Positions 2,702-44,558 of a stretch of 64,000 bases of DNA are shown in pieces. Within the stretch, counting starts at the first letter, position 1, and every line of letters begins with the position of its first letter. Location of the stretch: contig OZ253442.1 in the NCBI GenBank assembly GCA_965261085.1, positions 1,920,001 to 1,984,000 on the forward strand, in the 5' to 3' direction. The notes under the pieces were generated by a model that saw nothing but the letters and a program-made list of their open reading frames with translations, searched no databases and was not told the origin of the DNA. The stretch comes from a bacterium. Its GTDB lineage: Bacteria; UBA8248. A program made the position numbers and the translations under genes.

Positions 2702-5262
2702 AATACGTCATCAAAAAAGAGGCCGTGAGAGTGCATGAACCGGGGAGCCTGTATGTCGAGGTTGTACTCAGCGTCCCGCAACTCAAGCCGCTCACCTACC
2801 GGGTGGAAGCTGAATTCGTGGGACGCCTCGCGCCTGGACTGCGCGTGCTCGTGCCGCTCGGAAAGAGGAAGGTGACGGGATACATCGTCCACCCGCCGAG
2901 CGAGAGCCCGCCTCCAGGCGTCGAGCCCACTTCCATAAAGCCTGTTCTGGAGATGATAGACGATGAGCCGTTGCTTACGCCGGAGCTTCTCGAGCTCACC
3001 AGATGGGTAGCGGAATACTATTGCTGTGGCTGGGGGGAGGCGCTCAAATTCGCGTTGCCGTCCCACCAGGAGAAAAAAACCGTAGAGCGTTATCGCCTGA
3101 GTGAATCGGGGAGGCGGGAGGCCGCGGGGGGCCTTGGCTTGCCCGGACTCAAGCCCTCAGAGGGGAAGGGAAGCCACAAGGCGCGCATTCTGGTGGCGCT
3201 TCGCAAGGCTCCTAGAACCATCAACTCCCTTACGGCGTCGTTCGGGCGCGGCACGCGCCCGGAACTCATGCGTCTTGTCGATGCGGGTTTCGTGGAGATA
3301 ATCGTCGATGCCGTGGGTGGTTCGGAACCTAGAAAGGCCAAGTACGCGCGCCTTTGCAAGAAGCCCGATGGGGATGAGTTGAAGAATTTGGGAAAACGCG
3401 CGAGGCGGCAGGCGGAAATCTTGCGTCTTTTGTACCAGGCCGAAGATGGGCGGATGCAAATACAAAAGCTGGAAGCCTTCTCGAAAGGGGCGCGCGCTGC
3501 ATGCGCGGCTTTGGAGAAAAAAGGATGGATCAAGGTGGAGGAATGCCTCCTCCCCGATGAAGCGGATGTTAGCGACCTGAGTCCGAGCCCCGGCGTGCCT
3601 TTTATGGACCTTACGGATGAGCAGGAAGAATCGTTTGAATTGGTGAAAGCGGATATCGAACAAAAGAATTTTTCAGTGACGCTTCTTCACGGCGTCACGG
3701 GAAGCGGGAAGACGGAAGTCTATATCCGACTGGCGCAAAAAGCCCTCGAAAACGAATTGGGTGCGTTGGTTCTGGTGCCGGAGATCGGCTTGACCTCCCA
3801 GCTGTTGGGGCGGTTTCAAGAGCGTTTCGGTCATCAGGTGGCTTGTCTTCATAGCGCGTATCCAGAGAAAAAGCGTAGATCCGAATGGCGGCGCATCAAG
3901 AATGGGGATGCGCCCATCGTTGTGGGCACGAGGTCCGCCGTTTTCGCCCCGATTCCGAACTTAGGGATGATTGCCGTGGACGAGGAGCATGACGGCTCCT
4001 ACAAGCAGGATGAAGCTCCTCGCTACCACGCTCGGGATACCGGAATCGTGCGCGCCAGGAATCTGAGCGTTCCGGTCGTGCTCGGCTCGGCGACGCCCTC
4101 AATTGAGAGCTATACGAGCGCCAGAAGCGGCCGCTTCCGCCTTCTCAAGTTGTCGCATCGACCCACGGGGGGAGCTTTGCCGGAGGTGCGGTTGGTGGAT
4201 TTAAGAAAAGAGGCAGGCTCCGACCCCAAGACGCCCGAACTTCTGACGCGCGATTTGGCGACGGCCATTGGCGAGTGTCTAGAGCGAGGCGAGCAAACGC
4301 TGTTGTTCTTGAACCGGCGCGGGTTTTCCTCGGTTATTTTGTGCCGCGAATGTGGGGAGGCGCTTCAGTGTCCTCATTGCTCCATTGCGCTTACATTTCA
4401 CCGCGAAGGCGGGGGCAGGGTGCAGTGCCATTGGTGTGATTACAGCGCGCATCCACCCAACAGATGCTCTTCCTGCCGCAGTGAGCGCGTGGGTTATTTC
4501 GGCGTAGGGACGGAGCGTGTGGAGGAGGCCGTAAGGGCGCGGTTCCCCGAAGCGCGCGTGCAACGCCTGGATCGCGATACCACCCGTCGGGCAGGCGCGT
4601 ACGAGCGGATATTCGGCGCCATGCGAAACGGAGAAATCGACATATTGATCGGGACGCAAATGGTGGCGAAGGGCCATGATTTTCCGAAATTGACGCTCGT
4701 GGGCGTCGTGGTGGCCGACGTCGGGCTTCATCTGCCGGATTTCAGGGCGAGCGAGCGGACTTTTCAGCTATTGACGCAGGTGGCCGGCCGGGCGGGCCGC
4801 GCCGATTTGCCGGGAGAGGTCCTCATCCAGACGTTCAGGCCGGATCATTTTGCGGTTCAGTGCGCTCGTACGCATGATTACGCCGGGTTTTACAAGAGAG
4901 AAGCCCTCGCGAGAGAGCGGATGGGCTACCCGCCGTATCGACGCCTGGCCAGGCTCCGTTTCGAGTCGAAAAACAAGCACCTTGCGGCGAAAGCCGGTGA
5001 ATGGACGGCCTCTTATTTGAGGAAACGTGGCGCCGTGGCGGCCGGACGCGCTGCCGATACAAGCGTGGTCGAATACCTGGGTCCCGCGCCGGCGCCTCTT
5101 TTGAGAATTCGCGGCGTATGGCGGTATCACATAATCCTGAAGGCCAGGACGTCGAGGCGCTTGGGCGAGGCGCTCAAATCGCTGACGGCGGAATTTGACG
5201 GACAACCGGCCTTTTCTTCCGTTCGCCTGGCGGTGGATGTCGACCCGATAAGTTTGATGTAG
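2698..5262 (+). CDS. priA: primosomal protein N' helicase
   Basis: GVTGSGKTEVY, DEEH, SATPS, CxxC zinc-binding motifs, GTQMVAKGHDF, QVAGRAGR, VDVDP C-terminus. Confidence 0.97.
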   Translation: MKYVIKKEAVRVHEPGSLYVEVVLSVPQLKPLTYRVEAEFVGRLAPGLRVLVPLGKRKVTGYIVHPPSESPPPGVEPTSIKPVLEMIDDEPLLTPELLELTRWVAEYYCCGWGEALKFALPSHQEKKTVERYRLSESGRREAAGGLGLPGLKPSEGKGSHKARILVALRKAPRTINSLTASFGRGTRPELMRLVDAGFVEIIVDAVGGSEPRKAKYARLCKKPDGDELKNLGKRARRQAEILRLLYQAEDGRMQIQKLEAFSKGARAACAALEKKGWIKVEECLLPDEADVSDLSPSPGVPFMDLTDEQEESFELVKADIEQKNFSVTLLHGVTGSGKTEVYIRLAQKALENELGALVLVPEIGLTSQLLGRFQERFGHQVACLHSAYPEKKRRSEWRRIKNGDAPIVVGTRSAVFAPIPNLGMIAVDEEHDGSYKQDEAPRYHARDTGIVRARNLSVPVVLGSATPSIESYTSARSGRFRLLKLSHRPTGGALPEVRLVDLRKEAGSDPKTPELLTRDLATAIGECLERGEQTLLFLNRRGFSSVILCRECGEALQCPHCSIALTFHREGGGRVQCHWCDYSAHPPNRCSSCRSERVGYFGVGTERVEEAVRARFPEARVQRLDRDTTRRAGAYERIFGAMRNGEIDILIGTQMVAKGHDFPKLTLVGVVVADVGLHLPDFRASERTFQLLTQVAGRAGRADLPGEVLIQTFRPDHFAVQCARTHDYAGFYKREALARERMGYPPYRRLARLRFESKNKHLAAKAGEWTASYLRKRGAVAAGRAADTSVVEYLGPAPAPLLRIRGVWRYHIILKARTSRRLGEALKSLTAEFDGQPAFSSVRLAVDVDPISLM

Positions 5263-9151: not shown

Positions 9152-9784
9152 TTAACTCTCTTCTTTATCCTTTTCGAGCCGTTCCTGCTTCACGCGGGCG
9201 ACCTCGGTCTTGACGTCGTCGATAACGTCTTTGCCCCAGAAGAGCTTTCCCTCCACCACGAACGTGGGGATTCCGAAGATACCCAGACCTTTTCCCTGGG
9301 CGCGCTGGCTGTGCAGTGCGCCGATGTAGCGTCCCTCGGCGATGACGGCTTTGATTTCCTCCCCGTCCAGGCCGACATCCTCACCGAGTTTGGCAATGAC
9401 GTCCAGATCTTCCAGGTTCTGGTCGTCCACCCAGCGGGCCTTGTAGCAGCGGTCCCGAAATTCCTTGAATTTCCCCTTGTCCCGAGCGTAATAGGTAGCC
9501 ATGTGAAGGTTGGTGGTGCGGTAGTCGCCTCCGGCGACCCGGATGGGCACGTCGTACTTATCGGCGAGAGGTTTGTGGTTCGTCTCGTAACTTTCTTTTT
9601 TCCGTTCGGGAGAGTAGCCGGCGAACTCCTGACCGGGGGGTCTTCCCTCCCAGCTGACCCACTCGACGACCACGTCGAGGTCTTCTTCAATCACAGGTAT
9701 GCCACCGACGGTGGCGACGTAGCAAAATGGTCAGGTGTAATCCGAGTATTTCACCACAACAATCGGTTCTTTCAACTCACCCAT
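9152..9784 (-). CDS. DsbA/FrnE-like thioredoxin-fold selenoprotein (UPFC)
   Basis: ATG 9784 with GGAGG; reads MGELKEPIVVVKYSDYT-TGA-PFCYVAT in frame with the 9152..9694 ORF; TGA at 9733-9731; cis-Pro motif GIPTF; hairpin 9701-9715. Confidence 0.85.
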
Positions 9785-12333: not shown

Positions 12334-14493
12334 ATGAAGGACGAAGTTGCCGCTTTAGAGCTAAGTGTCGTCGCCGGAATTGTCTGGCACGAGGGGCGCA
12401 TTCTTATTTGTCAGCGCCCTGCAGGCGGCCACATGCCGGGCTTCTGGGAGTTTCCGGGTGGCAAAATAGAGGGTGGAGAGAACCCCCAGGAAGCCTTGCG
12501 CCGCGAGATTTGTGAGGAACTCGGTATCGAAGTACGCGTTGGACGTCTTCACTGGGAGACCCGACATCGATACCCAGATAGAGATGTACACCTACGCTTT
12601 TATGATTGTGAATGGGAGAGCGGGGTGGTGAAGAATGTAGAGGTGGCCAAGTACGAATGGGCGGATCCTTCCTTATTGGGGTATTTTGATTTCCTGCCGG
12701 CGGATGTGCAGTTGATAGAATCTCTCATGAATGGCGAGAAAATACGAGATTCGGGCAATAGCGCAAAACCCGTTTCAAAGGCTGATTTAAGCGCCGCTTA
12801 TGATACGTGTATGAAAATCGTAGTCGGCCATTACGAGAATTTTCCCGTGGCCTCGAAGTTGCTGCCGGCGAAGATAAGACCGCATGTCGCTGCTGTATAT
12901 GCATTCGCCAGAGGTGCTGATGATATCGCGGATACGGCCAGGCCCGCCCATGAGCGTTTCGCTCGTCTCGATGAATGGGAAGAAAAACTTGTTTTGGCCC
13001 AGAAAGGAGTTGCGGAAACAGACGTTTTCATAGCGCTTTCTCATACGCTTCAGCAATTCGATTTGCCCTTACAACCTTTTCGGGATTTGCTCTCGGCGTT
13101 CAAACAAGACGTCACGGTTCTCCGGTACCCGAACTATGAAACCTTGCTCGATTATTGTCGCCGATCGGCGGATCCCGTCGGGCGAATCGTTCTCATGCTT
13201 CACGGGATCCGTGATGAGGAAGCTTTTCGTGCGTCGGATGCCATATGCACGGCCTTGCAGATTGCGAATCACTTACAGGATGTAAAAGAAGATGCCGAGC
13301 GAGGCATCATCTACATGCCTCAGGACGAGATGAAAAAATTCTCCGTCTCCGAGGATGATTTGCTCGCAGACGTGGCGACACCTCCACTACGCGCATTTCT
13401 GGTTTTTCAGATACAAAGGACGAAGCGCCTCTTCAAGCAGGGCCTGCCTCTTTTGTACCGTACCCGTGGCGCATTGGGCCGTGAGCTTCGTGCGATTTGG
13501 CGCGGAGGCGTCGCGGCGCTGGACTCGATTTCCCGTGAGAATTGGGATGTTTGCGCAGGCTCGCCGCTTTTGAATGGCAGGGATAAGGCCAAGTCGCTGC
13601 TTGCGGCGTTTCGCCCGGTCTATCCACTCGAATCCAATGTGGATCGGCATGCGGAAGAAGAGTTGAACCGTGCCTATTGCCGCTGGTTTATTCGAGCCAG
13701 CAAGTCGAATTTTTATCTGTCTTTTTTTAGCCTGCCCGCGGAGAAAAGGCGCGCCATCACAGCGGTGTATGCGTATTGCCGCATGGCCGACGACATCGCC
13801 GATGAGCCGGGGGAGATATCTGGCAAAAGGACCTTGTTGCGTGAGTGGAAAGAAGCGTTGGCTCAGTTGTGCGAGGAGAGTCCATCCCACCCGATAATCG
13901 GGGAACTCGCGTGGGCGGCGCGAAAATACGACTTGCCGCCGCAGCATTTCCGGGCGATTTGTGATGGGGTGGCGATGGATTTAGAGGAAAGTCGATTTGA
14001 AAATTTCTCAGATCTTGAAAATTATTGCGACAAGGTGGCTTCTGCAGTAGGGCTGGCGTGTCTGGGTATTTTCGGCGCAAAATCGGAGTTTGCGAAAGAA
14101 TATGCCGTTTGTTTGGGAAGAGCGCTTCAGATGACGAACATTTTAAGAGACGTTTGGGAGGATGCGCAGCAAGAGCGCTTTTATATTCCGAGAAGCGAAA
14201 TGCAGAATTATGGTGTAACGGTCTCCGATTTGAGAGACAAAAAAGATACTTCTCAGGTCTTGAGTCTTCTCCAGTTTCTGGCGCATCAGGCGCGTGGATA
14301 TTACGAGCGGGCGAACGAGGCCTTGCGCCACGAGAAAAAAGAGAACCTTCTTCCTGCGAGAATCATGGGCCGAATTTATCGGAGACTTCTAAGTGAAATG
14401 GAGGAGAATCATTTTCGGCACATGGATTATCGCCCCTCATTGAAGTCCAGGGAAAAACTACAAGAAGCGCTTCGCTGTTTTCTGGAATCATAA
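12334..14493 (+). CDS. NUDIX(MutT-like)-HpnC-HpnD fusion (squalene pathway)
   Basis: NUDIX box GGKIEGGENPQEALRREICEELG; HpnC HYENFPVAS..AFARGADDIAD; HpnD SKSNFYLSF..AYCRMADDIAD..QMTNILRDV; one uninterrupted ORF. Confidence 0.9.
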   Translation: MKDEVAALELSVVAGIVWHEGRILICQRPAGGHMPGFWEFPGGKIEGGENPQEALRREICEELGIEVRVGRLHWETRHRYPDRDVHLRFYDCEWESGVVKNVEVAKYEWADPSLLGYFDFLPADVQLIESLMNGEKIRDSGNSAKPVSKADLSAAYDTCMKIVVGHYENFPVASKLLPAKIRPHVAAVYAFARGADDIADTARPAHERFARLDEWEEKLVLAQKGVAETDVFIALSHTLQQFDLPLQPFRDLLSAFKQDVTVLRYPNYETLLDYCRRSADPVGRIVLMLHGIRDEEAFRASDAICTALQIANHLQDVKEDAERGIIYMPQDEMKKFSVSEDDLLADVATPPLRAFLVFQIQRTKRLFKQGLPLLYRTRGALGRELRAIWRGGVAALDSISRENWDVCAGSPLLNGRDKAKSLLAAFRPVYPLESNVDRHAEEELNRAYCRWFIRASKSNFYLSFFSLPAEKRRAITAVYAYCRMADDIADEPGEISGKRTLLREWKEALAQLCEESPSHPIIGELAWAARKYDLPPQHFRAICDGVAMDLEESRFENFSDLENYCDKVASAVGLACLGIFGAKSEFAKEYAVCLGRALQMTNILRDVWEDAQQERFYIPRSEMQNYGVTVSDLRDKKDTSQVLSLLQFLAHQARGYYERANEALRHEKKENLLPARIMGRIYRRLLSEMEENHFRHMDYRPSLKSREKLQEALRCFLES

Positions 14494-15849
14494 ATGTCTG
14501 AGCCTGTCGGATTCGAACGACCGGTTATCATCATCGGAGCCGGCGCAGCGGGATTGTCCGCTGCTTTGCGCCTTGCCGAGTCGGGTACCAAAGTTCTGGT
14601 GCTTGAGGCGGGGAAGCTTCTCGGCGGCCGGGCGCGTAGTTTCATGCATTCGTCCACGGGTTTGGAGTTGGACTGGGGTCCGCATTTGTTTATGGCGGCA
14701 AACCCGGCATTGCGCTCTTTGTTGGAAAGGGTGGGTGCTGCCGATGATGTTTTTTACTCTCCCTCTTTAGAGGTGAGCTACCGTATTTGGGAATCGGAGT
14801 TGGCCAGACGGACGCAATTGTCATTTCCAGAGGGCGGAGGGATTTTTGCGCAACTCCGAGGCTTGCTCAAATGGCGTGGCCCCCGTTTTTGGGAGAAAGT
14901 GAATCTTCTGAAAGGACTTTCGAAGATTATTTCGAAATCGAGTGATGAGATTCCGAATGAATCCATGGGTGAAATGCTCGAGCGTTTTGGCCAGAAAGAT
15001 GAAGCGGTGCGCTGGTTTTGGGAGCCGTTTGCGCGCGCGGTATTGAATTTGCCCTTAGAGCAGGGAAGTGCGGAATTGTTCAAGGCGGTGATCCGCGAGG
15101 CCTTCGCCCATGGCCCGAAAGGGGCCGCCTTAGGAGTGCCGATGAAGGCCCTGAGTGCTTTATGGGCTAACAGAGCCGCGCAAAGCATCCGGCGCCTGGG
15201 AGGAGATGTTAGGCTTCAGCAACCCGCACTCGGTTTTGACGTCAAAAATTCAAAAATGAGCGGTGTGATCCTGAAAGAGCGCGAGATCTTGTATGCAGCC
15301 GCAGTCATTTCCGCCGTGCCGCCGGACGTCCTTGGGAGATTGTTGGGTAACGAACTCAGGGAGCAAACACCTTTTTCGAATCTGGGGAAACTATGTCCGG
15401 GGCCTATCGCCAGTGCATATTGCTGGCTTGAAAAACCGGATGAAGGTCCTCCCTTTGAAGCCATTTTGGATGAGGACTGGGATTGGCTGTTTCGTCCTGA
15501 GGGAAGTGGAGGAAATGCGGGAAATCTGGTGTGCCTGTTGGCCGGTGCGGAGGATTCCATCGCATCTGAGGAACGGTCGATCATTGAGTCGTCTGCGAGA
15601 GATTGCCTTAATCGATTGATGCCCCGTAACCGTACTCGAAGTATTTTGGTGGTGCGAGAGCGTGCCGCTACCTGGGCGAACGGGGTGGCCGAACAAAGCT
15701 CCCGGATGGACACCCAAACGCCTGTAAAGGGTTTCTTTTTGGCTGGAGACTGGACGCGCACAGGTCTGCCGGCCACCGTGGAGGGTGCGGTGAGAAGTGG
15801 AGACAAAGCTGCAGAGACGGTCCTGGAGTATATCAGGGCCGGCACGTAG
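14494..15849 (+). CDS. hpnE: hydroxysqualene dehydroxylase
   Basis: IGAGAAGLSAA, LGGRARSF, LAGDWTRTGLPATVEGAVRSG; abuts the hpnCD gene. Confidence 0.88.
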   Translation: MSEPVGFERPVIIIGAGAAGLSAALRLAESGTKVLVLEAGKLLGGRARSFMHSSTGLELDWGPHLFMAANPALRSLLERVGAADDVFYSPSLEVSYRIWESELARRTQLSFPEGGGIFAQLRGLLKWRGPRFWEKVNLLKGLSKIISKSSDEIPNESMGEMLERFGQKDEAVRWFWEPFARAVLNLPLEQGSAELFKAVIREAFAHGPKGAALGVPMKALSALWANRAAQSIRRLGGDVRLQQPALGFDVKNSKMSGVILKEREILYAAAVISAVPPDVLGRLLGNELREQTPFSNLGKLCPGPIASAYCWLEKPDEGPPFEAILDEDWDWLFRPEGSGGNAGNLVCLLAGAEDSIASEERSIIESSARDCLNRLMPRNRTRSILVVRERAATWANGVAEQSSRMDTQTPVKGFFLAGDWTRTGLPATVEGAVRSGDKAAETVLEYIRAGT

Positions 15850-17988: not shown

Positions 17989-18831
17989 TTGTCGTTGAGT
18001 GACTCGCAATTAGAGGCTGTGTGTCATTTGTTGAATGATGGTTCACCGAGGGTGACGGCGGTTTTGGACCGCCAGGTTTCCGAATTCTCAATCGAGGAGC
18101 AGCAAAGACTCCTGAGCATATTGAAAAAGCGTGAGGTGAGCGATGTGAAACTGCCGCCATCGCTGAGGGAATTCCATTATAGGCAAATCGAAATTGCTTT
18201 TTCGGACTGGTCTCTTTCTTCGGTTGAAGATGTGGCTCTGGAAGATGCGTGCTTCTTGTTGGCGTCTATTGGCCATCCGCTCGAAAACATGGAAACGAAA
18301 AAAGACGAATTGCTGAGCATGGAAAATCATTTACGTAAACGTTTGGAGGGTATAAGTAAAGCCGAAGCTATTGTCGACGAAGTCGTGGAATATCTACACG
18401 GAGAGCTTCGCTTCGATGGCGATCGGGAGAATTATTATGATGCGCAGAATAGTTTCATGAGTCGCGTGCTGGAGCGCAGACGCGGCATTCCCATATCACT
18501 TTCCGCGTTGTATTTGATTCTCACCGCGCGATTGGGGCTTCCTTTTCACGGAGTCGGGATGCCGGGGCATTTTATCGTAAAATACCAAGCTGATGAGGAC
18601 CCCATATTTCTGTATCCCTTCGATAGGGGAAAACGCTTGAGTGTTGGAGATTGCGCGGCGATCGTACGAGGACTCGGGTATCATTTCGACATGCGGTTTT
18701 TACAGGAAACCCCTCCTCGCCGTATCGTGGAGAGAATGCTCAACAATTTGCTTGGAATTTATAAGCGTGATGGGGAAGATGAAATGGTGACCTGCCTGCT
18801 TCGCTGTCGAGAGCTGGTGCAGCGGGTATAG
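17989..18831 (+). CDS. SirB1/transglutaminase-like domain protein
   Basis: FDGDRENYYD..NSF..VLERRRGIPISLS, GVGMPGHF, RMLNNL. Confidence 0.85.
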   Translation: MSLSDSQLEAVCHLLNDGSPRVTAVLDRQVSEFSIEEQQRLLSILKKREVSDVKLPPSLREFHYRQIEIAFSDWSLSSVEDVALEDACFLLASIGHPLENMETKKDELLSMENHLRKRLEGISKAEAIVDEVVEYLHGELRFDGDRENYYDAQNSFMSRVLERRRGIPISLSALYLILTARLGLPFHGVGMPGHFIVKYQADEDPIFLYPFDRGKRLSVGDCAAIVRGLGYHFDMRFLQETPPRRIVERMLNNLLGIYKRDGEDEMVTCLLRCRELVQRV

Positions 18832-18855
18832 CACCTTCATAAGAGGAAAAACGGT

Positions 18856-19320
18856 ATGCACTACTTCGAGTTGGCTGAAAATCTGGCTTTCGGGAGCCAA
18901 CCGGGTCGGAAGGATTTGGAATCCCTGGCGAACAAGGGAATAATAACCTTGGTGAATTTGCGTTTTGCCGATGAGGAAGAGCCTGAGCTACCACCCGAGG
19001 CGGAGAGAAAAGCGGCGCAAGAGTTAGGGATGAACTTCGTCCATATTCCCGTAAGCGCCGCGAATATGGACGATGCGTTATCGGGAGAAATCCATGAAGC
19101 ACTCCATGAGACCAGAAAAGATGGCCCGGTATTCGTCCACTGAAAAGGTGTGGGGCGAGCCGGGATTTGCTCGCTGATTCATGTGGCGGAAGAAAATGAT
19201 ATGGGTGGAGACGAGGTGCTGCAAAAGGCGGACGAAATAGGGCTTGACTGGGCAGTTTCCTCCATTGGGGGATATTTTGAAAAATTCGCCAACCAAAGGA
19301 AAAGAACTGGCACATCGTAG
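18856..19320 (+). CDS. DUF442/Blh-like sulfurtransferase or PTP-fold selenoprotein (HUxxxxxR)
   Basis: GSQP, LVNLR..EE, FVHIPV, then GPVFVH-TGA-KGVGRAG; the frame stays open to TAG 19318-19320; hairpin 19155-19174. Confidence 0.85.
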
Positions 19321-19338
19321 AAAAGTATTATAGCCATG

Positions 19339-19373
19339 AAAAAAGAGGGGAGTAAGTAACTCCCCTCTTTTTT
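19339..19373. terminator. bidirectional rho-independent terminator
   Basis: AAAAAAGAGGGGAGT-aagta-ACTCCCCTCTTTTTT between convergent genes; it lies just after TAG 19320, supporting the extended ORF. Confidence 0.9.
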
Positions 19374-19384
19374 GTGGTCAACCT

Positions 19385-23570: not shown

Positions 23571-24506
23571 GTGGCCACGCATGAACTGGATACCACTGTC
23601 GATACCTGCCATTGGGGGTTTTATGATTCCGCCCTCGCTCCCGTCATGACAATCGCCTCTGGCGATACGCTCGTCGTGAAAACCGAATCGGGGCGGAAAG
23701 ATTTTTTAAAAAAATATCCAGAGAGACTTTCTGAAAATCTCAGAAAAATTTTGGAGACCATGGAGCCGGGCCCGGGGGCGCATATCATGACGGGCCCCGT
23801 GGCCATCGAGGGCGCCGAGCCCGGCGACGTGTTGGAAATCAAGATTCATGAGGTCAAACCCCGCTATGATTGGGGCTACAACGGATTCAGACCCTTGGTG
23901 GGCGGTCTGCCGGAGGATTTTCCTTATACGAGAATGGTGATTGTCGAGGTTGACGAAGAGAACGGAACGGGTGACTGGGGCGCGGGGGTCAAGGTGCCGC
24001 TCGGGCCTTTTTTCGGGAATTTCGGGGTGGCGCCGTCTTCAGCGCTTGGGCGTGTGCCCACGATTCCGCCCGGGGAGTGGGGAGGAAACACGGATTGTAA
24101 GGAATTTACGGCCGGCTCGACGATTTATTTGCCGATTTTCAACGAAAGCGCTTTATTCTCCGCGGGAGACGGGCATGGCTGCCAGGGGGACGGTGAGGCG
24201 AATATCAACGGGATAGAGATGGGCCTCATCGGTACTTTCGTGATGAACGTTCGCAAGGACATGAACATCAAAACGCCGCGCGCGGAAACGAAATCTCACT
24301 ACATTTTGATGGGTTTTGATCCGATTTTGGATAATGCGGCGAAGATGGCTTTACGGGAGACGATTCAATTCCTGGGTGAGCTTCGCGGCATGAGCCCCGA
24401 TGATGCGTATAGGCTATGCAGCTTGGCGGTCGACCTGCGCGTCACCCAAATCGTGAACGGAACCAAGGGCGTTCACGCGATGGTGCCCAAATCTTTGTTT
24501 GAATGA
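23571..24506 (+). CDS. acetamidase/formamidase family protein (paralog 1)
   Basis: HIMTGPV, GAEPGD, GGNTD, GDGHGCQGDGE, AYRLCSL. Confidence 0.9.
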   Translation: MATHELDTTVDTCHWGFYDSALAPVMTIASGDTLVVKTESGRKDFLKKYPERLSENLRKILETMEPGPGAHIMTGPVAIEGAEPGDVLEIKIHEVKPRYDWGYNGFRPLVGGLPEDFPYTRMVIVEVDEENGTGDWGAGVKVPLGPFFGNFGVAPSSALGRVPTIPPGEWGGNTDCKEFTAGSTIYLPIFNESALFSAGDGHGCQGDGEANINGIEMGLIGTFVMNVRKDMNIKTPRAETKSHYILMGFDPILDNAAKMALRETIQFLGELRGMSPDDAYRLCSLAVDLRVTQIVNGTKGVHAMVPKSLFE

Positions 24507-24531
24507 GTTTCATTTTTAGAAGGGGCCATCG

Positions 24532-25479
24532 TTGCCCGAGCACGTGATTACGCAAAACCCCGACAACATTCAGTGGGGTTATTATGACGCCGTACTTTCT
24601 CCGGTTCTCACCGTGGTTTCGGGCGATGTGATCGAAATTCACACGGAACCGGGAATCAGGACCCTTGAGTCTCCGATTCGAGAAAGAGCGTCTGAAAACC
24701 TGCGTCATATAGCCGAGCGCGGAAAGAGGGATCTGGGCGGCCATATCCTCACGGGACCCATCGCGGTGGAAGGGGCCGTGGCGGGAGATGTCCTGGAGGT
24801 GAGATTTCTGGATATCTGGCCGCGCTATGATTGGGGCTTTAACGTCATCCGGCCCCTAGCGGGAGGTTTACCCGAGGATTTCCCGTATTCGAGAACAGTG
24901 ATCGTGGAAATCGACGAAGAGACGAATACAGGTGACTGGGGAGCAGGCGTGAAAGTGCCGCTTAGTCCTTATTTCGGTAATTTCGGTGTGGCGCCGCCCA
25001 GCGATTTTGGTCGTGTTCCATCCACTCCTCCGGGAATCTGGGGAGGAAACATGGACAACAAGGAACTCATCGCGGGTTCTCGCGCTTATCTTCCCGTATT
25101 CCACGATGGCGCTTTGTTCGCAATAGGTGACGGACACGGCTGCCAAGGGGATGGAGAGAGCTGTCTGTCGGCCTTGGAATGCGGTATGTCCGCGAAAATC
25201 GAACTCATTGTCCGAAAAGATTTGAATTTGGAAATGCCCCGCGCGGAGACGACCACGCATCATGTTCTCATGGGATTCGACCCTATTCTCGATAACGCAG
25301 CCAAAATGGCTCTCAGGGAGACAATCAAGTTTTTGGGGAAATTGTGTGGCATGAGCAAAGATGATGCGTATACGTTGTGCAGCCTGGCCGTGGATCTGCG
25401 CATTACGCAGATTGTGAATGGGGTCAAAGGCGTTCACGCGATGCTGCCGAAAGAAATTCTTGATGAAGGAGTGTGTTGA
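24532..25479 (+). CDS. acetamidase/formamidase family protein (paralog 2)
   Basis: HILTGPI, GGNMD, GDGHGCQGDGE. Confidence 0.9.
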   Translation: MPEHVITQNPDNIQWGYYDAVLSPVLTVVSGDVIEIHTEPGIRTLESPIRERASENLRHIAERGKRDLGGHILTGPIAVEGAVAGDVLEVRFLDIWPRYDWGFNVIRPLAGGLPEDFPYSRTVIVEIDEETNTGDWGAGVKVPLSPYFGNFGVAPPSDFGRVPSTPPGIWGGNMDNKELIAGSRAYLPVFHDGALFAIGDGHGCQGDGESCLSALECGMSAKIELIVRKDLNLEMPRAETTTHHVLMGFDPILDNAAKMALRETIKFLGKLCGMSKDDAYTLCSLAVDLRITQIVNGVKGVHAMLPKEILDEGVC

Positions 25480-26414
25480 TGGCGACTCATGAATTGGTTG
25501 CGAATCCGGATACCGTTCATTGGGGTCATTATGACGCCTCACTGGAGCCTGTGATGCGGATTCGCTCCGGCGATACGCTGGAGGTTCATACGGAATCCGG
25601 CAGAGAAGAATATCTGGCGGAACTCGGAGAACGGGCATCCCGGAATTTGCGGGATATTGTTTCGCAAGTCCCCCAAGAACTTGGTCCCCATATCATGACG
25701 GGCCCTGTCTCTATAGAAGATGCTCGGCCTGGAGACGTGCTGGAAGTTCGTATCCACGAGGTCAAGACGCGCTATGACTGGGGATATAACTCCATCCGGC
25801 CGATGATGGGAGGATTACCGGAAGATTTTCCGTATACGCGCACCGTCATAGTGGATCTCGATTTGGAAGCGCAAACAGGAGACTGGGGCGCGGGCGTCAA
25901 GGTGCCTCTGCGGCCGTATTTCGGGAATTTTGGTGTGGCGCCCCCGCCTTCCGTAGGCCGGGTGGGGAGCTATCCTCCGGGCGCCTGGGGCGGGAATTTG
26001 GATAACAAAGAACTCATTTCGGGTTCTATCGCCTATTTCCCTATTTTCAATGAGGGCGCGTTGTTTTCCGTAGGCGATGGGCATGGCTGCCAGGGAGATG
26101 GGGAGGCTTGCTTGACGGCCATTGAAACGGGCCTCTCGGGGACGATGGAAATTATCGTCCGAAAGGATTTGCACTTGGAAAATCCCCGTGCGGAAACCGA
26201 TACGCATTATATCTTGATGGGGTTTGACCCCATCCTTGATAACGCGGCCAAAATGGCGCTCCGGGAGACGATTCAGTTTCTCGGAGAGTTGCGAGGCATG
26301 AGCAGAGATGACGCCTATACGCTTTGCAGCCTCGCTGTGGACTTGCGGGTCACGCAAATCGTGAATGGCGTGAAAGGGGTTCACGCCATGCTGCCGAAAT
26401 CATTATTCACATAA
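25479..26414 (+). CDS. acetamidase/formamidase family protein (paralog 3)
   Basis: HIMTGPV, GGNLD, GDGHGCQGDGE; the start overlaps the previous stop. Confidence 0.9.
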   Translation: MATHELVANPDTVHWGHYDASLEPVMRIRSGDTLEVHTESGREEYLAELGERASRNLRDIVSQVPQELGPHIMTGPVSIEDARPGDVLEVRIHEVKTRYDWGYNSIRPMMGGLPEDFPYTRTVIVDLDLEAQTGDWGAGVKVPLRPYFGNFGVAPPPSVGRVGSYPPGAWGGNLDNKELISGSIAYFPIFNEGALFSVGDGHGCQGDGEACLTAIETGLSGTMEIIVRKDLHLENPRAETDTHYILMGFDPILDNAAKMALRETIQFLGELRGMSRDDAYTLCSLAVDLRVTQIVNGVKGVHAMLPKSLFT

Positions 26415-29086: not shown

Positions 29087-29740
29087 TCAGTGGTGGGCAT
29101 GCGTCATCGCCGCCATGATCGCTTGTTCTATTTCCATAATCGCCCCACTGACTTCACGGCCGATGAGATCCAACTTGCGAATCTGATCGATACGAGGACG
29201 GATCCGATGAATCTCCTTGCCGGAAAACACGTCACGCAGAATGTTGCATGCATCAGCAAGGCAGATAATAGCGACATCTTTTGGATCTGGAGTTTCATCC
29301 GATAGTAATACGCCGGTGATGCGCAGCTTCACTTCACGCTCGGCGCGGCCATCGATCATCGGATATCTCCGCGCCCGGAAGACCCAAAGGAACTTTTCCT
29401 CCTGGGATTCCAGAATGCCGTTGTCGATCAGGCTGGACAATGACTGATTGCGGATTTCTGTAGCCTCCCGGGAAATTGTTTCAATCCAGGCCTTTGTATC
29501 CCTGGTTTCGGTGGAACCCGCAATGCTGTCGAGAATCCGGTCATGCACCGGGTGGCCGATCGGGTTTTTATCCAGAACCATCAACTGGTTGGGGTCGGTG
29601 TCGATGCGGTTTGCAAATGCCAGATCCATTAGCACCGCGCCCGCGAGCACATATCCCATCGTGCTTTCGCGAATGGGTAGGAACGAACCTTTCTCGTCAT
29701 CCAACATCAGCAACAGGATTTCATCGACAAATGTCAGCAT
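29087..29740 (-). CDS. GPP34/GOLPH3-like family protein
   Basis: LTFVDEILLLMLDDEKG, LAGAVLMDL, L..GIL..EEKFLWVF..RYP pattern. Confidence 0.8.
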   Translation of the reverse strand: MLTFVDEILLLMLDDEKGSFLPIRESTMGYVLAGAVLMDLAFANRIDTDPNQLMVLDKNPIGHPVHDRILDSIAGSTETRDTKAWIETISREATEIRNQSLSSLIDNGILESQEEKFLWVFRARRYPMIDGRAEREVKLRITGVLLSDETPDPKDVAIICLADACNILRDVFSGKEIHRIRPRIDQIRKLDLIGREVSGAIMEIEQAIMAAMTHAHH

Positions 29741-31214: not shown

Positions 31215-32189
31215 TTAAACTCTCAGTACGGAAGCTGGGTGTTGCGCGCGTTCGAGGACGAAGTCGGCCATCAGCGGCCAGGGATCGAAGCCGATGACAT
31301 TTTGCGCATCGTCCACGAAATTGGAGAGTGCGTTGATGTCGTAATAATATATTTCCCCATCTTTATCATTGACCAAATACTCGACGCCGCCGACTTCTAT
31401 GCCGGCTTTCCGCATGATTTTCTCGACCGTATTTATTACTTGTTGCGGGGGTGTGATTTTCTCAACCAAAGCATTCCTACCGTTCACGCCACACGCAATT
31501 TCTTCGTTTCGGCGGCAATAACTGCCCGGGCAGAGATTAAAGGAGTTCGGGTCCACCAATGCCAGTTGAATCGCATAAAGAAACTCACCATTTAGAATTT
31601 CGACTCGGATAATTTGCTCTCCACGCGGCGGAATGTATTCCTGAACGAGAGCCACATTGTCGATGCCAAAATCGATGCTCGCTTCATCCGCCGCCTTTTG
31701 GAGTTCTTGGGGCGTATCATATTTTTGTATCCCGGCGCCGCTTCCGCCAATGTTCGCCTTCGTGATGATAGGGAAGCTGAATCCCTCGGCCGCCGAAGGG
31801 GCCTGCGAGGGATGGTTTATCACCCGTGACTTCGGGTGATTGACGCCCAGGTTCTTGAGTAGACGGGTTTGCCGCACTTTTGAGAATTCATGGAGATAGG
31901 CCTCATAGCCGTTGATCACGTTGGCGCCAATCGCTTGGAGATGCGCGCAATATTCGAGCGTGTAGGGAATCGCATGTGTATGCCCGCGCGCCCATGCAGA
32001 TGGGCTCATCCGGTTTACAATCAACGAATAAGGCGATTCTGTTTCCGTCGGGTCGAAGCGGTGGTTGTGGGCTTCTATTTTTTCATATTCCACACCTCGC
32101 CTGTCGAGTTCATCGAAAAGCTTATTGAACCAATCGGGGTGTTCATAATAAACAGCGATGGGATGGGCAGAACCGTTTAGGTCACTCAC
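31215..32189 (-). CDS. ATP-grasp ligase (RimK/glutathione synthase-like)
   Basis: NRMSPSA, KANIGGSGAGI, VQEYIP, GGVEY, YDINALSNF. Confidence 0.85.
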   Translation of the reverse strand: MSDLNGSAHPIAVYYEHPDWFNKLFDELDRRGVEYEKIEAHNHRFDPTETESPYSLIVNRMSPSAWARGHTHAIPYTLEYCAHLQAIGANVINGYEAYLHEFSKVRQTRLLKNLGVNHPKSRVINHPSQAPSAAEGFSFPIITKANIGGSGAGIQKYDTPQELQKAADEASIDFGIDNVALVQEYIPPRGEQIIRVEILNGEFLYAIQLALVDPNSFNLCPGSYCRRNEEIACGVNGRNALVEKITPPQQVINTVEKIMRKAGIEVGGVEYLVNDKDGEIYYYDINALSNFVDDAQNVIGFDPWPLMADFVLERAQHPASVLRV

Positions 32190-32638
32190 CGGAGCACATT
32201 CTCCTCAAATTTTAGCGTATCGAGTACTTGTTGGATTCGTTCATCGACTATCTCGATCATCTTGGGATGAAATCCGAGGTGCGGACCTAAAATGACGTCG
32301 ATATCAGGGTATTTCCTCCGGCCTTCTTTAATGAAGACGGGCAAATCCACCTTCACGTGATTGCCCCTGAAAAGAAAGTAAGGGATGACGATGATTCTCT
32401 CTGCCCCATTCTCTACACACAAGTCGATTCCTTCGGGGATGGAAGGGTGGCTGATCTCCAAAAATGCGGCCTCTAGTATGCGATGCGGCCAGGCTTTCCG
32501 AAAATGATCCACGACGAGGAAAAGCGCATCGTTGGCGTTTTGGGCGCGGCTGCCGTGACCGACGAGCAATACCGCCGTTTTCACTTGGTCCTCGGATGTC
32601 TCGTCCAAAAATTCTAATTGCTTTTCTAGGCTAGGCAT
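32186..32638 (-). CDS. sirohydrochlorin chelatase (CbiX/SirB family)
   Basis: LLVGHGSR, AFLE..PSI, PYFLFRGNHVKVDLP; exact start uncertain. Confidence 0.88.
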   Translation of the reverse strand: MPSLEKQLEFLDETSEDQVKTAVLLVGHGSRAQNANDALFLVVDHFRKAWPHRILEAAFLEISHPSIPEGIDLCVENGAERIIVIPYFLFRGNHVKVDLPVFIKEGRRKYPDIDVILGPHLGFHPKMIEIVDERIQQVLDTLKFEENVLR

Positions 32639-34431
32639 TCGCCTTCTCCTCTTTCCAATACGTATTGTTTGTCCTGACTCCAATCGATGAACAAATCAGA
32701 ATCAGGCTCATCGTTGAATTGACCAACAAGGTGAAACTCTTGCAACAGGTCTTCGAAAGACGCACTGCCCTGACGATCCAAAAACTCGTTGAAACGCTCG
32801 CCTTCGCTCCTGTATTCCTGGTAGTGAGACAACATCTTCTTCAGTGCATCGGGAACACGCTTCGCAGGAATTCGAACCTGTATACGTTTGCCGATGCGGA
32901 TTTCTCCATCAGTGCTATCGTATTGGCCACCGAGGAAAATTTCATAAGCAGGCAGCATCGCGCCGTTCGCTCTAAGCGTTCCTCCATGAAAGCCGATGTT
33001 GGCGATATGGTGCTGGCCGCACGAATTCGGGCAACCGCTCATCTTGATGTGCATCTCCCGCGTGAGCGGGTCCTGATCGACTTCTTGGAGTGTTTCGCGC
33101 ATGGCGTTCGCCAAGCCCATTGAGGAGGTAATGCCGAGCTTGCATGAATCCGTTCCCGGGCAGGAAACCACATCAGATATCTCGCGGGCGCCTTTTTCGG
33201 CGAGTCCGATGCGATGAAGCTCTTTCCATAGGGGATAAAGCTCTCCTTCGCGCACCCATCTGAGGACAAGGTTTTGCTCGAAACTCGTTCTTGCGCGGCC
33301 TCTCGCAAAACGCCGGGTGAGGTCGGCTAAGGCGAAGAACTGACCTGTAAGAATATTTCCCAATGGTAGCTTGATCTCGACGGCGAAATAGCCTTCTTGC
33401 CTCTGCGCGGTGACGTTTGTATTTCTCCAGGCGTAATAATCCGCCGCATCGCCATTCGGGTTTGCTGCCACGCAGTTCAAGGTGTTCAAGACGGGTGGAG
33501 CGTCGGCTTCTTCATCATCTTTCCAAAGATAGGGCTCGGGATTGATGGGCTCTTTCGCCCAATCCTTCTTGAGCTCCTCCTCGACACGCTCGCGCAGTCC
33601 GTCTATACCGATCCAACTCACCAAAAACTTAATGCGCGCCTTGAAGCGGGATTTGCGGAGTTCAGCAGCCTGGTCAAAAACCCGGATAAGGGCTTCGCTC
33701 ACCCTCAGGAAATCGGACACCGGAACGAATTCGTACAGCACTTCAGCGGTACGCGCGAAAGTGGCGAGGCCGCCGCCAACGAGCATCTTGAAGCCATGCA
33801 CGGGGATTCCTTCCACTTCTTTAATGAGGGGAATGAACCCAATGTCATGAATTCCGCCGACTACGCAGTCCGAAGAACAACTGGAGAACGCCACTTTGAA
33901 TTTGCGCGGTAGGTCCTGTGTGAAATCCTTACGAACGAAGTAACGGGCGAAGGCACCTGCATATGGTGTGGTATCGAAAACCTGATCCTTACAAACGCCC
34001 GCATAGGGACAACCGGTGACGTTTCTCACGCTATTTCCACATGCTTCACGCGTGGTTAGCCCCACTTCGCCCAGAAGTCTCAAAACATCAGCGGCCTCGT
34101 CGAGAGGGACGAAATGAAACTGCACGTTTTCCCGTGTCGTGACGTGGCCTTTTCCTAATGGCGCGAAATCACGGGATACGCGCCCCAGGGCTTCGAGTTG
34201 CGAAGCACTCAGGCCGCCGAAAGGTATTTTCACGCGCACCATCTGAACATCCGCCTGACGCTGCCCATATACGCCGCGTCTTAGCCGATAGGGAAGAAAC
34301 TCGCTGTTATCGATTTCACCGTTTCGGAACCTGGTGGCTTGCGTTTCAAAATCATCTAATTCTTCGGGAATCACCGGAATGACGCCCAATGTTTCCCGGG
34401 ATAGTGGTTTTCGTGATTCTTCGTGCATCAC
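32626..34431 (-). CDS. siroheme nitrite/sulfite reductase (ferredoxin-dependent type)
   Basis: GVYGQRQ, TTRENVQ, CGNSVRNV, LPRKFK, SCPGTDSC and SGCPNSCGQH ligands. Confidence 0.92.
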   Translation of the reverse strand: MMHEESRKPLSRETLGVIPVIPEELDDFETQATRFRNGEIDNSEFLPYRLRRGVYGQRQADVQMVRVKIPFGGLSASQLEALGRVSRDFAPLGKGHVTTRENVQFHFVPLDEAADVLRLLGEVGLTTREACGNSVRNVTGCPYAGVCKDQVFDTTPYAGAFARYFVRKDFTQDLPRKFKVAFSSCSSDCVVGGIHDIGFIPLIKEVEGIPVHGFKMLVGGGLATFARTAEVLYEFVPVSDFLRVSEALIRVFDQAAELRKSRFKARIKFLVSWIGIDGLRERVEEELKKDWAKEPINPEPYLWKDDEEADAPPVLNTLNCVAANPNGDAADYYAWRNTNVTAQRQEGYFAVEIKLPLGNILTGQFFALADLTRRFARGRARTSFEQNLVLRWVREGELYPLWKELHRIGLAEKGAREISDVVSCPGTDSCKLGITSSMGLANAMRETLQEVDQDPLTREMHIKMSGCPNSCGQHHIANIGFHGGTLRANGAMLPAYEIFLGGQYDSTDGEIRIGKRIQVRIPAKRVPDALKKMLSHYQEYRSEGERFNEFLDRQGSASFEDLLQEFHLVGQFNDEPDSDLFIDWSQDKQYVLERGEGECLA

Positions 34432-34498
34432 ATGCTCCTCACGTGAACAGCTAAGTAAATATCGGATGATGAATGGGAGTCAGGCCGAAGCCCGGCTT

Positions 34499-35308
34499 TT
34501 ACGAAATGGCTTTGTTTAAGAATGCTTCCGGGAGACAGCGCCAGGAGATTTCTTGACTTTCATCGGCCTCGAACCAAACCAGGTCTTCAAGGCCGGCGAC
34601 TGGGCCTACGAGAAAAACAGCAGGTGGAGATATTTCTTCGCGTTGCGCGAGACTAGATGCTTCTCCCAAAAGACAGCGGTAGGCTGACTGCCTGTTGGTG
34701 GTTCCATTTTCAATAATGGCGGTGGGCGTGTCTTTCGACATTCCGTTTTCGATCAGAGCGGCTGATATGCGTCCGATGGAGCGTGCGCCCATGAGGAAAA
34801 CGAGTGTCCCCCTATCCTTCGCCAGATGCGCATAATCCACCTGTGTTTTCGGTTTGCCGGGATCTTCATGGGCGGTCACGACGGTGAACGATGAGGCGAT
34901 GTTTCGGTGTGTGACGGGTATTCCCGCATAGGTGGGCACAGCCAAGGCGGAACTGATTCCTGGTATGATTTCAAAATGAACACCGGCTTCTGCCAGGGCT
35001 TGCGCCTCCTCGCCGCCACGCCCGAACACGAAAGGGTCCCCACCTTTCAGGCGCACCACCTGAAAACCACGATGAGCGAAATGGATGAGAGATTTGTTGA
35101 TGTCATCTTGATTCATGATATGACGGCCGCTGGATTTTCCAGCATTGATGAGTTCGCAGCTTTCCGGGCAAAGTTGTAGAATCTCAGGGTTCACGAGGCG
35201 GTCATAAATCACCACGTCCGCATTTGATAAGGCTTTCGCCGCCTTGAGTGTAAGCAAGTCCGGGTCCCCAGGACCTGCTCCCACAATATGCACCTTTCCT
35301 TGATACAT
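34499..35308 (-). CDS. cobA: uroporphyrinogen-III C-methyltransferase
   Basis: VGAGPGDPDLLT, VRLKGGDPFVFGRGGEE, GIPVTHR. Confidence 0.95.
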   Translation of the reverse strand: MYQGKVHIVGAGPGDPDLLTLKAAKALSNADVVIYDRLVNPEILQLCPESCELINAGKSSGRHIMNQDDINKSLIHFAHRGFQVVRLKGGDPFVFGRGGEEAQALAEAGVHFEIIPGISSALAVPTYAGIPVTHRNIASSFTVVTAHEDPGKPKTQVDYAHLAKDRGTLVFLMGARSIGRISAALIENGMSKDTPTAIIENGTTNRQSAYRCLLGEASSLAQREEISPPAVFLVGPVAGLEDLVWFEADESQEISWRCLPEAFLNKAIS

Positions 35309-36191: not shown

Positions 36192-36851
36192 ATGAACGTC
36201 ACCATGTGGAACTGCTACGTCTGACCTTACGCATATAGGGCCATGGAATGGCTCGTTCGCCTTCAGGAGAAAAGAAGCGATCTGAAAGTGGATTACAAGG
36301 CCTTCGTGCTGGAGCAGGCGAATTTCGGCCCGGCGCGGGGCGAGGACTGGAAAGCCTGGGAAGACAAGACTTTCCCGAGCAGGGATCTCCCCCCGCATCA
36401 GGCGGCCAAGTGCGCGGCGCTGCAGGGCGAGACGCAGTTCGACAAGTACCACGTGGCGCTCCACCGGGCGAGGCACCGCGACGGCAAGGATATCACCAGC
36501 GAGCTGGTTCTGCGCGATATCGCCGTGGAGGTGGGCCTCGACGTCGATCGCTGGGAGGAGGACATGAAGAGCGGCGCCACCATCCCCTTCATCGCGCAAG
36601 AGCATGAGGACGCGGCGGAGCAGGGCATTTTCGGCGTTCCCACGCTCGATTTCGGCGAGGGCAAGCCCGTTTTCGTGAAACTAGAGGAAGGCGATTGGGA
36701 AAACGAGGGCGATGAGCAGGGTCTGCTCGACGCCGTAAAGGCCACCTCGGCCGAGCGGCCCTATTTGTTGGAGCTCAAGACGCCCGAATCCGCCAAGCGC
36801 AGCTCTTCCTCTTCGAAGAAGTATGAGAAATATGGGGTGAAGGCGCGATAA
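36192..36851 (+). CDS. DsbA-like thioredoxin-fold selenoprotein (CYVUPYA)
   Basis: AAGGAG then ATG 36192: MNVTMWNCYV-TGA-PYAYRAMEW in frame with the 36243 ORF; TGA 36222-36224; FGVPTL cis-Pro motif; hairpin 36238-36254. Confidence 0.85.
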
Positions 36852-43948: not shown

Positions 43949-44558
43949 GCCGTTCTCCTTTTATACTTATGAGACCCGTTGAATCTGGTTGGGTGTTTTT
44001 CCGGGCTGACCGGAGAGCGGCGGCTTTATCGCCTGCGCCGCCTTCGATCCAGTCGTTGTTCGCGCCACCGTAGATAAAGTCCCTGCCTTCACCGCCATCG
44101 ATCGCGTCATCGCCCTTACCGCCGTAGATAATGTCTGATCCTTCGCCGCCATCGAGCGTGTCGTCGCCTTCGGTGCCTTTGAACAAGTTGACGTCGAACG
44201 GCAGCTTCCCGAATATAAAATCATCCACGTCAAGGTTCGTGATATCAACGTTCTGGAGGCGGATCTCCCCTCCGCCGTACCCGCCCAAGTCGATGAGGAC
44301 GTCGTCCCCGTCGGCGGTGATGGTCAGATCATCGAAGCCGGTTATGCCCAGTATCGATGAGAAATCGATCTTGTCTTCCCCACTGGTGAAGTCGGTGATC
44401 GTGTCGTTCCCGTCCCGGGCGTCGTATATGAAGGTATCGTGCCCGGCTCCGCCCGTGAGCGTATCGTCGCCCTCCTCGCCTATGAGCGTATCGTGGTCCT
44501 CACTGCCCACGATCGTGTCGTCGCCCTGGGTCCCGAAGATTGTTTGGTCATCCACCAT
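43935..44558 (-). CDS. RTX calcium-binding repeat protein, probably 3'-truncated
   Basis: GGxGxD repeats end abruptly at about 44030, followed by a non-RTX tail running into the next gene's RBS. Confidence 0.75.
   Translation of the reverse strand: MVDDQTIFGTQGDDTIVGSEDHDTLIGEEGDDTLTGGAGHDTFIYDARDGNDTITDFTSGEDKIDFSSILGITGFDDLTITADGDDVLIDLGGYGGGEIRLQNVDITNLDVDDFIFGKLPFDVNLFKGTEGDDTLDGGEGSDIIYGGKGDDAIDGGEGRDFIYGGANNDWIEGGAGDKAAALRSARKNTQPDSTGLISIKGERHVLA

Follow-up and report, generated by a model that had tools for sequence, protein, structure and literature searches.

A gene at 18856–19320 on the forward strand of a 64,000-nt stretch of contig OZ253442.1 (the 64-kb window, in which positions are counted from the first letter) is, in our assessment, probably a genuine selenoprotein gene that encodes the selenocysteine (Sec) form of a stand-alone DUF442 sulfur transferase, a rhodanese-like enzyme on the protein tyrosine phosphatase (PTP) fold. 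The case would be one of canonical bacterial Sec recoding in a family not so far catalogued as a selenoprotein. From the ATG at 18856, the frame reads ...KDGPVFVH and then reaches a TGA at 19141–19143, where a short open reading frame (ORF; 18856–19143) closes after 95 residues; with the TGA read as U, the protein continues as UKGVGRAGICSLIH... for 58 further residues to a TAG at 19318–19320, for a total of 154 residues. A preliminary description of this DNA had reported an ORF ending in VFVH-TGA that read-through lengthens by 58 residues, and re-reading of the sequence showed both statements to be exact. Its description of the loop as a perfect H-C-x5-R motif has to be corrected, as the actual loop, U-K-G-V-G-R, has an x4 spacing, which is the norm for the DUF442 family. 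The features of the gene are the following:

18843–18847 (+): Shine-Dalgarno-like GAGGA, 8 nt 5' of the ATG, read from the sequence
18856–19320 (+): full coding sequence of the predicted DUF442-type selenoprotein, 154 aa with U at residue 96 (evidence from translation, Pfam, loci, the ratio of non-synonymous to synonymous substitution (dN/dS) and an AlphaFold2 (AF2) model)
19141–19143 (+): in-frame TGA, the proposed Sec codon (U96), aligned with the catalytic Cys of the H-C-x4-R loop
19154–19175 (+): hairpin resembling a Sec insertion sequence (SECIS), with a 7-bp stem GGCGAGC/GCUCGCU and an 8-nt loop CGGGAUUU (folds, consensus of 21 sequences, synonymous suppression)
19156–19158 (+): codon of Arg101, the conserved Arg of the U-x4-R loop (R in 21 of 21 clade members)
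19168–19170 (+): codon of Cys105 (U+9), a clade-specific Cys and candidate resolving residue (21 of 21 clade members)

Both the TGA and the frame beyond it are conserved among relatives of this gene. A scan of one genome per species produced 171 pattern matches, 20 of which encode a relative, and all 20 loci are colinear with the read-through protein from query residue 1 to residue 148–154. Two outcomes named in the preliminary description as evidence against Sec, a TGA unique to this assembly and a poorly conserved region behind it, were not what we found: codon 96 is TGA in 20 of 20 loci, followed by KG[VLM][GR]RAGICSL, and the downstream region has a dN/dS of 0.19 with frame 0 kept. This ratio, obtained by the Nei-Gojobori method from 21 sequences (210 pairs, with saturated-dS pairs dropped), refers to codons 108–150, beyond the hairpin (201 pairs used), and compares with 0.11 for codons 1–95 (192 pairs used). 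Downstream of the TGA, 20 of the 21 sequences have no further stop in frame 0, whereas each of the 21 has stops in frame +1 and 14 have them in frame +2. Purifying selection acts on the frame beyond the TGA.

Public protein records give a different picture of the same gene. A word-indexed search over 5.8 billion proteins returned 28 relatives at 59–99% identity, none of which crosses the TGA position; 23 are exactly 95 aa long and 26 end at the His just before the TGA, the remaining two being a shorter fragment (P0006) and P0015. The latter (94 aa) has its first 56 residues joined in frame to its last ~38, with the whole active-site region missing, and may represent a natural deletion or an assembly artefact. 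That every public record found is a short form is one reason to ask whether the TGA is a true stop, in which case the gene would be decayed or split, with a 95-residue N-terminal fragment and perhaps a separately started C-terminal piece; in the annotation of one genome, indeed, the C-terminal piece appears as a protein of its own (P0059, 53 aa), and the GTG at codon 99 of the window gene could restart translation. We nevertheless regard a true stop as very improbable. All 20 loci keep the stop at exactly the codon of the catalytic Cys, with dS at ~1 across the rest of the gene, which is not decay, and the selected downstream frame is in frame with the upstream part. In most sequences codon 99 is GTG, TTG or ATG, but L005 has GTA and L006 has GTT; the restart codon is thus not conserved, and a split gene with a restart is unlikely. 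As judged from the structural model, the fold of the 95-residue fragment would also be incomplete, with three helices and the Arg loop missing. A genome-wide reassignment of TGA was rejected, because TGA is the ordinary stop of 14 of the 39 Pfam-supported ORFs in the window and because, in L017, L019 and L020, the terminator of this same gene is itself a TGA, at codon 152.

The SECIS-like hairpin follows the TGA closely, its 7-bp stem starting 10 nt past the TGA and 17 nt separating the TGA from the loop. The six-pair core GCGAGC/GCTCGC that had been noted 11 nt after the TGA is present, starting at 19155, and a G-U pair extends it to 7 bp. Folded alone, the hairpin has a minimum free energy (MFE) of −10.6 kcal/mol, with an MFE range of −10.6 to −14.1 kcal/mol. 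In a consensus fold of 21 sequences, 147 of 147 stem cells are paired (7 pairs in each of the 21 sequences), and the stem changes seen, A-U to G-U in seven sequences and G-C to G-U in one, both keep pairing. Synonymous change is suppressed in the same codons: the sole synonymous variation in codons 100–106 is CGA/CGG, which preserves the pair, dS is 0.17 in the hairpin codons compared with ~0.9–1.2 elsewhere in the gene, and six of the seven hairpin codons (100–106) are invariant synonymous codons compared with 11 of 108 gene-wide (hypergeometric P = 1.6e-6). The suppressed codons coincide exactly with a hairpin at SECIS distance, which is a further argument against a true stop.

The legend to Fig. 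2 of a recent review gives the constraints of the bacterial SECIS (bSECIS) model as a loop of 3–9 nt, an upper stem of 4–16 bp, a G in the first two loop positions, a UGA-to-loop distance of 16–37 nt and an MFE of at most −7.5 kcal/mol (PMC13188914). The hairpin described here lies within all of these published values, with a loop of 8 nt, a stem of 7 bp, a G at loop position 2, a spacing of 17 nt and −10.6 kcal/mol. It therefore resembles the canonical bSECIS (the model behind bSECISearch) as a coding-region hairpin shortly after the UGA, and differs from it in lacking an Rfam match and in its loop, CGGGAUUU, which is peculiar to this clade; binding by SelB is only predicted here. The RNA evidence is thus conservation together with two pairing-compatible single changes.

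Assignment of the protein to DUF442 is based on Pfam PF04273 (BLH_phosphatase, formerly DUF442), which matches residues 6–102 with 34.0 bits (cut-off 26.1), and on PF22741, with 34.1 bits (cut-off 27); the further PTP-type models PF22784 and PF22785 also match. The rhodanese domain PF00581 gave no match at E-values up to 1, and the classical PTP and dual-specificity phosphatase (DUSP) models PF00102 and PF00782 score under their cut-offs. The earlier placement of the gene in DUF442 and the PTP fold stands; the protein is not Blh itself, as it has no dioxygenase domain and ends at residue 154. A profile search run exhaustively over 1.84 billion representatives gave 2581 proteins at E-values up to 0.001, the best 150 of which were listed; most among these 150 listed matches are stand-alone proteins of ~150 aa, and the motif [VILFAM]HCx4R occurs in 123 of 148 homologues among the matches listed. 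We aligned 13 of the 21 clade sequences with 121 homologues of 130–200 aa among the matches listed. The column opposite U96 contains Cys in 109 of the 121 (with S in 8, D in 2, G in 1 and a gap in 1), and His95 and Arg101 are kept in 118 and 116, respectively, so that, on the evidence of the alignment, Sec and Cys form a clean pair at the catalytic position.

Structural comparison leads to the same family. The profile aligns across the U96 site with the PDB entries 2f46 (Neisseria NMA1982; E = 2.7e-22) and 3gxg (E = 2.3e-18), both of which have C-x4-R loops; 3gxg and 3gxh are Shewanella structures. An AF2 model built from 134 sequences reached a predicted local distance difference test (pLDDT) score of 95.4 and a predicted template modelling (pTM) score of 0.90, superseding a first model from the 21 close sequences only (pLDDT 69.6). 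The top Foldseek matches are the DUF442 structures 3gxh, 3gxg and 2f46 (template modelling (TM) scores of 0.70–0.76), followed by archaeal and bacterial PTPs and DUSPs; Tk-PTP, TpbA, KAP and Cdc14 are found at TM scores of 0.65–0.74. Proteins already placed in DUF442 (the Blh domain of Xylella and Agrobacterium, the N-terminal domain of Cupriavidus SQR, and 2f46 and 3gxg/3gxh) share the fold and the H-C-x4-R loop with the window protein, whose size equals that of the stand-alone homologues. It differs from them in having Sec for the nucleophilic Cys, in standing alone without a dioxygenase or SQR domain, in an extra conserved Cys at +9 and in having a SirB1-like neighbour instead of a sulfide-oxidation operon.

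The same structural matches raise the possibility of a genuine selenoprotein that acts as a phosphatase or in an arsenate-reductase-like manner, with Sec96 attacking phosphorus or arsenic by way of a Se-P intermediate, in the manner of the Cys of PTPs and DUSPs. The protein shares with classical PTPs and DUSPs of the C-x5-R type (TpbA, VHR/DUSP3, Tk-PTP) an alpha/beta fold in which the nucleophile and the Arg lie in a strand-helix loop, the PTP-type models PF22741, PF22784 and PF22785 match, and the depositors of 3gxg and 2f46 named their proteins putative phosphatases. The details of the loop point the other way. It is one residue shorter than the PTP C-x5-R loop, such that HMMER needs a one-residue gap to align the protein with the receptor PTP PTPRS and with TpbA, and TpbA aligns to the profile only with an inserted residue; Ala rather than Ser or Thr follows the Arg, and the signature H-C-x5-R-(S/T) is therefore absent. 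Loop length is also what separates rhodaneses from Cdc25: within their superfamily, sulfur transfer is associated with the shorter loop and phosphate chemistry with the longer one. Asp73, which is invariant in the 13 aligned clade rows and present at 90% or more across all 21, could serve as a general acid, but position 73 varies family-wide (P 32, D 22, A 15, E 15) and positions 67–75 contain no acidic residue conserved across the family. Sulfur transfer is, moreover, the sole activity reported for DUF442 in two experimental accounts (PMC5823870, PMC9163753), and we consider a phosphatase unlikely.

Those accounts provide the functional background for a sulfur transferase. The DUF442 domain of Xylella Blh is described as moving sulfur from thiosulfate to cyanide or glutathione (GSH) (PMC5823870). 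For the DUF442 domain of Cupriavidus SQR, a Cys94-to-Ser change was used to abolish rhodanese function, and the domain expressed alone is described as accelerating the reactions of glutathione persulfide (GSSH) with sulfite and of polysulfide with GSH (PMC9163753). The earlier statement that DUF442 is a PTP-fold sulfur transferase using this Cys agrees with what both papers report. By homology with these enzymes, we propose that Sec96 is the sulfur-carrying nucleophile. In the proposed mechanism, the ribosome would read the UGA at 19141–19143 as Sec, with the mRNA hairpin at 19154–19175 presumably directing recoding as a bacterial SECIS bound by SelB, and Sec96 would stand in for the nucleophilic Cys of the H-C-x4-R loop. 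The Sec96 selenolate, held by the Arg101 loop, would attack a sulfane sulfur donor (possibly thiosulfate, a persulfide or polysulfide), bear the sulfur as a Se-S(H) adduct and pass it to a thiol or sulfite acceptor. A selenenyl-sulfide between Cys105 and Sec96 may serve to resolve or protect the selenium.

The distribution of this Cys is relevant to another reading, in which the protein is a genuine selenoprotein with a redox role, either cycling through a Sec96-Cys105 selenenyl-sulfide as a peroxidase or thiol oxidoreductase, or acting as a perselenide carrier to selenophosphate synthetase. All 21 clade members have Cys105, as does P0031, the nearest Cys form, compared with only 3 of the 121 other homologues, which makes it a candidate resolving residue and lends such a role some support. 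Its presence in P0031, however, means that this Cys does not track Sec, and no thioredoxin-like partner gene adjoins the selenoprotein gene in any of the 20 loci. For the carrier variant, the precedent is work on rhodanese perselenides. Redox activity is presumed for most predicted selenoproteins (PMC13188914), and three candidate Sec genes within 64 kb suggest a selenoprotein-rich organism (see below), both of which speak for a redox role; we judge it quite unlikely all the same.

Several results weigh against a Sec-containing DUF442 sulfur transferase. As a single sequence, the hairpin is unexceptional: in 45 nt its z-score is −1.82, with 11 of 200 shuffles as stable, and in 66 nt it is −0.72. 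No compensatory double change was found in the stem among the 21 sequences, and at the hairpin a permissive Rfam scan of 19100–19260 gave nothing, even with E-values up to 10. One sequence, L018, has a second TGA (4394–4396) at codon 132, where the others have TGG for Trp132; no distinct hairpin was found after it, and it may reflect truncation, sequencing error or decay of that copy and not a second Sec. The genes selA, selB and selD and a tRNA-Sec were not detected in the window by Rfam, ARAGORN and Pfam scans (the Rfam gathering scan returned tRNA-Val only, and ARAGORN no tRNA-Sec), a result that would also suit a true stop. As for function, the NCBIfam model TIGR01244 matches residues 5–131, spanning the TGA, with 48.3 bits against a curated cut-off of 85.85, and the Blh model NF040641 matches residues 6–135 with 63.6 bits against a cut-off of 625, over profile positions 3–130 of 423 and again spanning the TGA. 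By these scores, the protein is related to the TIGR01244 and Blh families and lies outside both, and because it falls under both cut-offs, transfer of function from Blh or SQR-DUF442 spans a distant relationship. Finally, no sqr or pdo gene for sulfide oxidation turned up in a Pfam scan of the 62 window ORFs.

Scanning of the window for in-frame TGAs revealed two DsbA-like genes with a TGA at the redox motif, which indirectly supports the use of Sec by the organism. The first (9784–9152, reverse strand; ATG at 9784) has its TGA at 9733–9731 in the context DYT-U-PFC; on read-through it covers positions 2–189 of the 191 of PF01323 (E = 3.7e-26), and a GCCACC/GGUGGC hairpin starts 15 nt past the TGA. 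The second (36192–36851, forward strand) has its TGA at 36222–36224 in the context NCYV-U-PYAY and matches PF01323 positions 2–172 on read-through (E = 1.4e-17); it has no Cys at +3 and a Cys at −3, and a 7-bp hairpin with the loop GGA starts 13 nt past the TGA. DsbA-like proteins of the UxxC and DxxUP forms appear as selenoprotein families in published tables (PMC9312934, PMC13188914), and the gene at 9152–9784 is likely, from its sequence, to encode a selenoprotein of this listed family (DsbA-like, UxxC/DxxUP). Taken with the DUF442 gene, the presence of three candidate Sec genes in 64 kb suggests a selenoprotein-rich organism. In the ranking given in the BSepDB paper, three metagenome-assembled genomes (MAGs) labelled Nitrospinota or Nitrospinaceae (GTDB phylum UBA8248), with 48–54 genes each, are among the ten most selenoprotein-rich bacteria. 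Nitrospinota or Nitrospinaceae labels are also attached to several of the 20 loci, which may belong to GTDB phylum UBA8248.

The Sec form may extend beyond the clade of the window gene. P0056 and six relatives (69–85% identity), one of them source-labelled Nitrospinae, are all 95 aa long and end at the same His, as does P0133 (94 aa), from which we infer that the P0056 group and P0133 are also Sec forms. In a maximum-likelihood tree of the N-terminal 95 residues (80 rows, 96 columns), in which many forks are unresolved, the Cys form P0031 falls in one clade with the three truncated groups (support 99/76) and is sister to the clade of the window gene (support 99/90). This topology fits one Cys-to-Sec switch followed by one reversion; repeated gains may also account for it. 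The natural Cys forms are found at 45% identity and lower.

Comparison with the selenoprotein literature indicates that the family has been little described, as had been surmised from the sequence. Neither PF04273, DUF442, TIGR01244 nor a PTP-fold family is present in the 87-family table of a 2022 review (PMC9312934), and the same four are absent from the 119-family table of a May 2026 review (PMC13188914). The deep-Sep paper has no such family among its nine new families, and no phosphatase, sulfur-transferase, DUF442 or rhodanese term occurs in its main text. This comparison covered the lists named here, the BSepDB family table and two Haft papers lying outside it. In a full-text literature search, no paper joined DUF442 with selenoprotein, and the DUF442 literature among the matches listed has no Sec in title or abstract; NCBIfam of June 2026 contains no dedicated model for this protein. 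The closest parallel is provided by the rhodanese-like selenoproteins (PF00581, forms 1–5), which were predicted by the same kind of comparison and likewise have Sec as the nucleophile in a sulfur-transferase-type loop (PMC13188914 Table 1), and which differ in having an unrelated fold and UxxS, UxxG, CxU or UxxxxU motifs rather than H-U-x4-R. We lean, by a little, towards regarding the protein as the first selenoenzyme on the PTP fold, representing an uncatalogued family in which Sec in an H-U-x4-R anion-binding loop carries sulfur or selenium as a Se-S or Se-Se adduct. If this is true, in a selenoprotein-rich bacterium the protein could help to supply sulfane sulfur or selenium to other enzymes.

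According to the recent review (PMC13188914), the majority of characterised selenoproteins adopt a thioredoxin-like fold, and Sec in the Arg-lined loop of a PTP-fold sulfur transferase would offer a different scaffold for comparing Sec and Cys chemistry, for which Sec/Cys swaps are easy to design because natural Cys forms exist. It would also provide a handle on the poorly understood stand-alone DUF442 proteins represented by the 2581 profile matches. Since each of the 28 close database relatives ends at the TGA or earlier and lacks the active site, the family is misannotated throughout.

The genomic context of the gene is stable across the 20 loci, and its fixed placement resembles that in an operon. 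Two neighbouring features of the window are:

17989–18831 (+): transglutaminase-like/SirB1-like protein, 280 aa (Pfam PF13369 Transglut_core2, E = 4.5e-41)
19333–19378 (no strand assigned): strong hairpin flanked by A and U runs, located between the selenoprotein gene and the convergent ilvD (fold)

A SirB1-like gene lies directly 5' of the selenoprotein gene in 20 of 20 loci; the window copy matches NCBIfam SirB1 with E = 6e-9, far under the cut-off of that model, and ends 24 nt ahead of the selenoprotein ATG. Because the gap is only 24 nt, the two genes are probably co-transcribed. On the other side, the selenoprotein gene faces a convergent ilvD in 20 of 20 loci, and a thiamine pyrophosphate (TPP) enzyme gene is found farther upstream in 19, the sequence of L014 being cut at its end. 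The hairpin between the selenoprotein gene and ilvD (−29.2 kcal/mol, z = −7.15, 0 of 200 shuffles as stable in a direct fold) was not reported by a consensus terminator scanner and is likely a bidirectional terminator; it lies after the TAG at 19318–19320, and read-through does end just before it, as the preliminary description had claimed.

Elsewhere in the window, a cluster on the reverse strand (32186–35308) contains a nitrite/sulfite reductase (601 aa, 32626–34431) with adjoining CbiX and tetrapyrrole methylase genes, which suggests a sirohaem-dependent assimilatory reductase cluster; these are the sole sulfur-related genes seen in the window. Three tandem paralogues of the acetamidase/formamidase family (PF03069), each of ~311–315 aa, occupy 23571–26414 (+), and 38638–41430 (+) encodes a complete MmeI-like type IIG restriction-modification enzyme with matches to all five MmeI domains. 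At 12334–14493 (+), a 719-aa fusion protein combines a NUDIX domain and two squalene/phytoene-synthase stretches; an amine-oxidase-type flavoprotein follows directly (14494–15849), and together this region (12334–15849) looks like a squalene or hopanoid-type lipid locus. Two adjoining ORFs with RTX calcium-binding nonapeptide repeats (42827–44558, −) may derive from a single gene interrupted by a stop or frameshift. At 29087–29740 (−) lies a gene for a bacterial homologue of the Golgi phosphoprotein 3 family, GPP34 (E = 3.5e-46).

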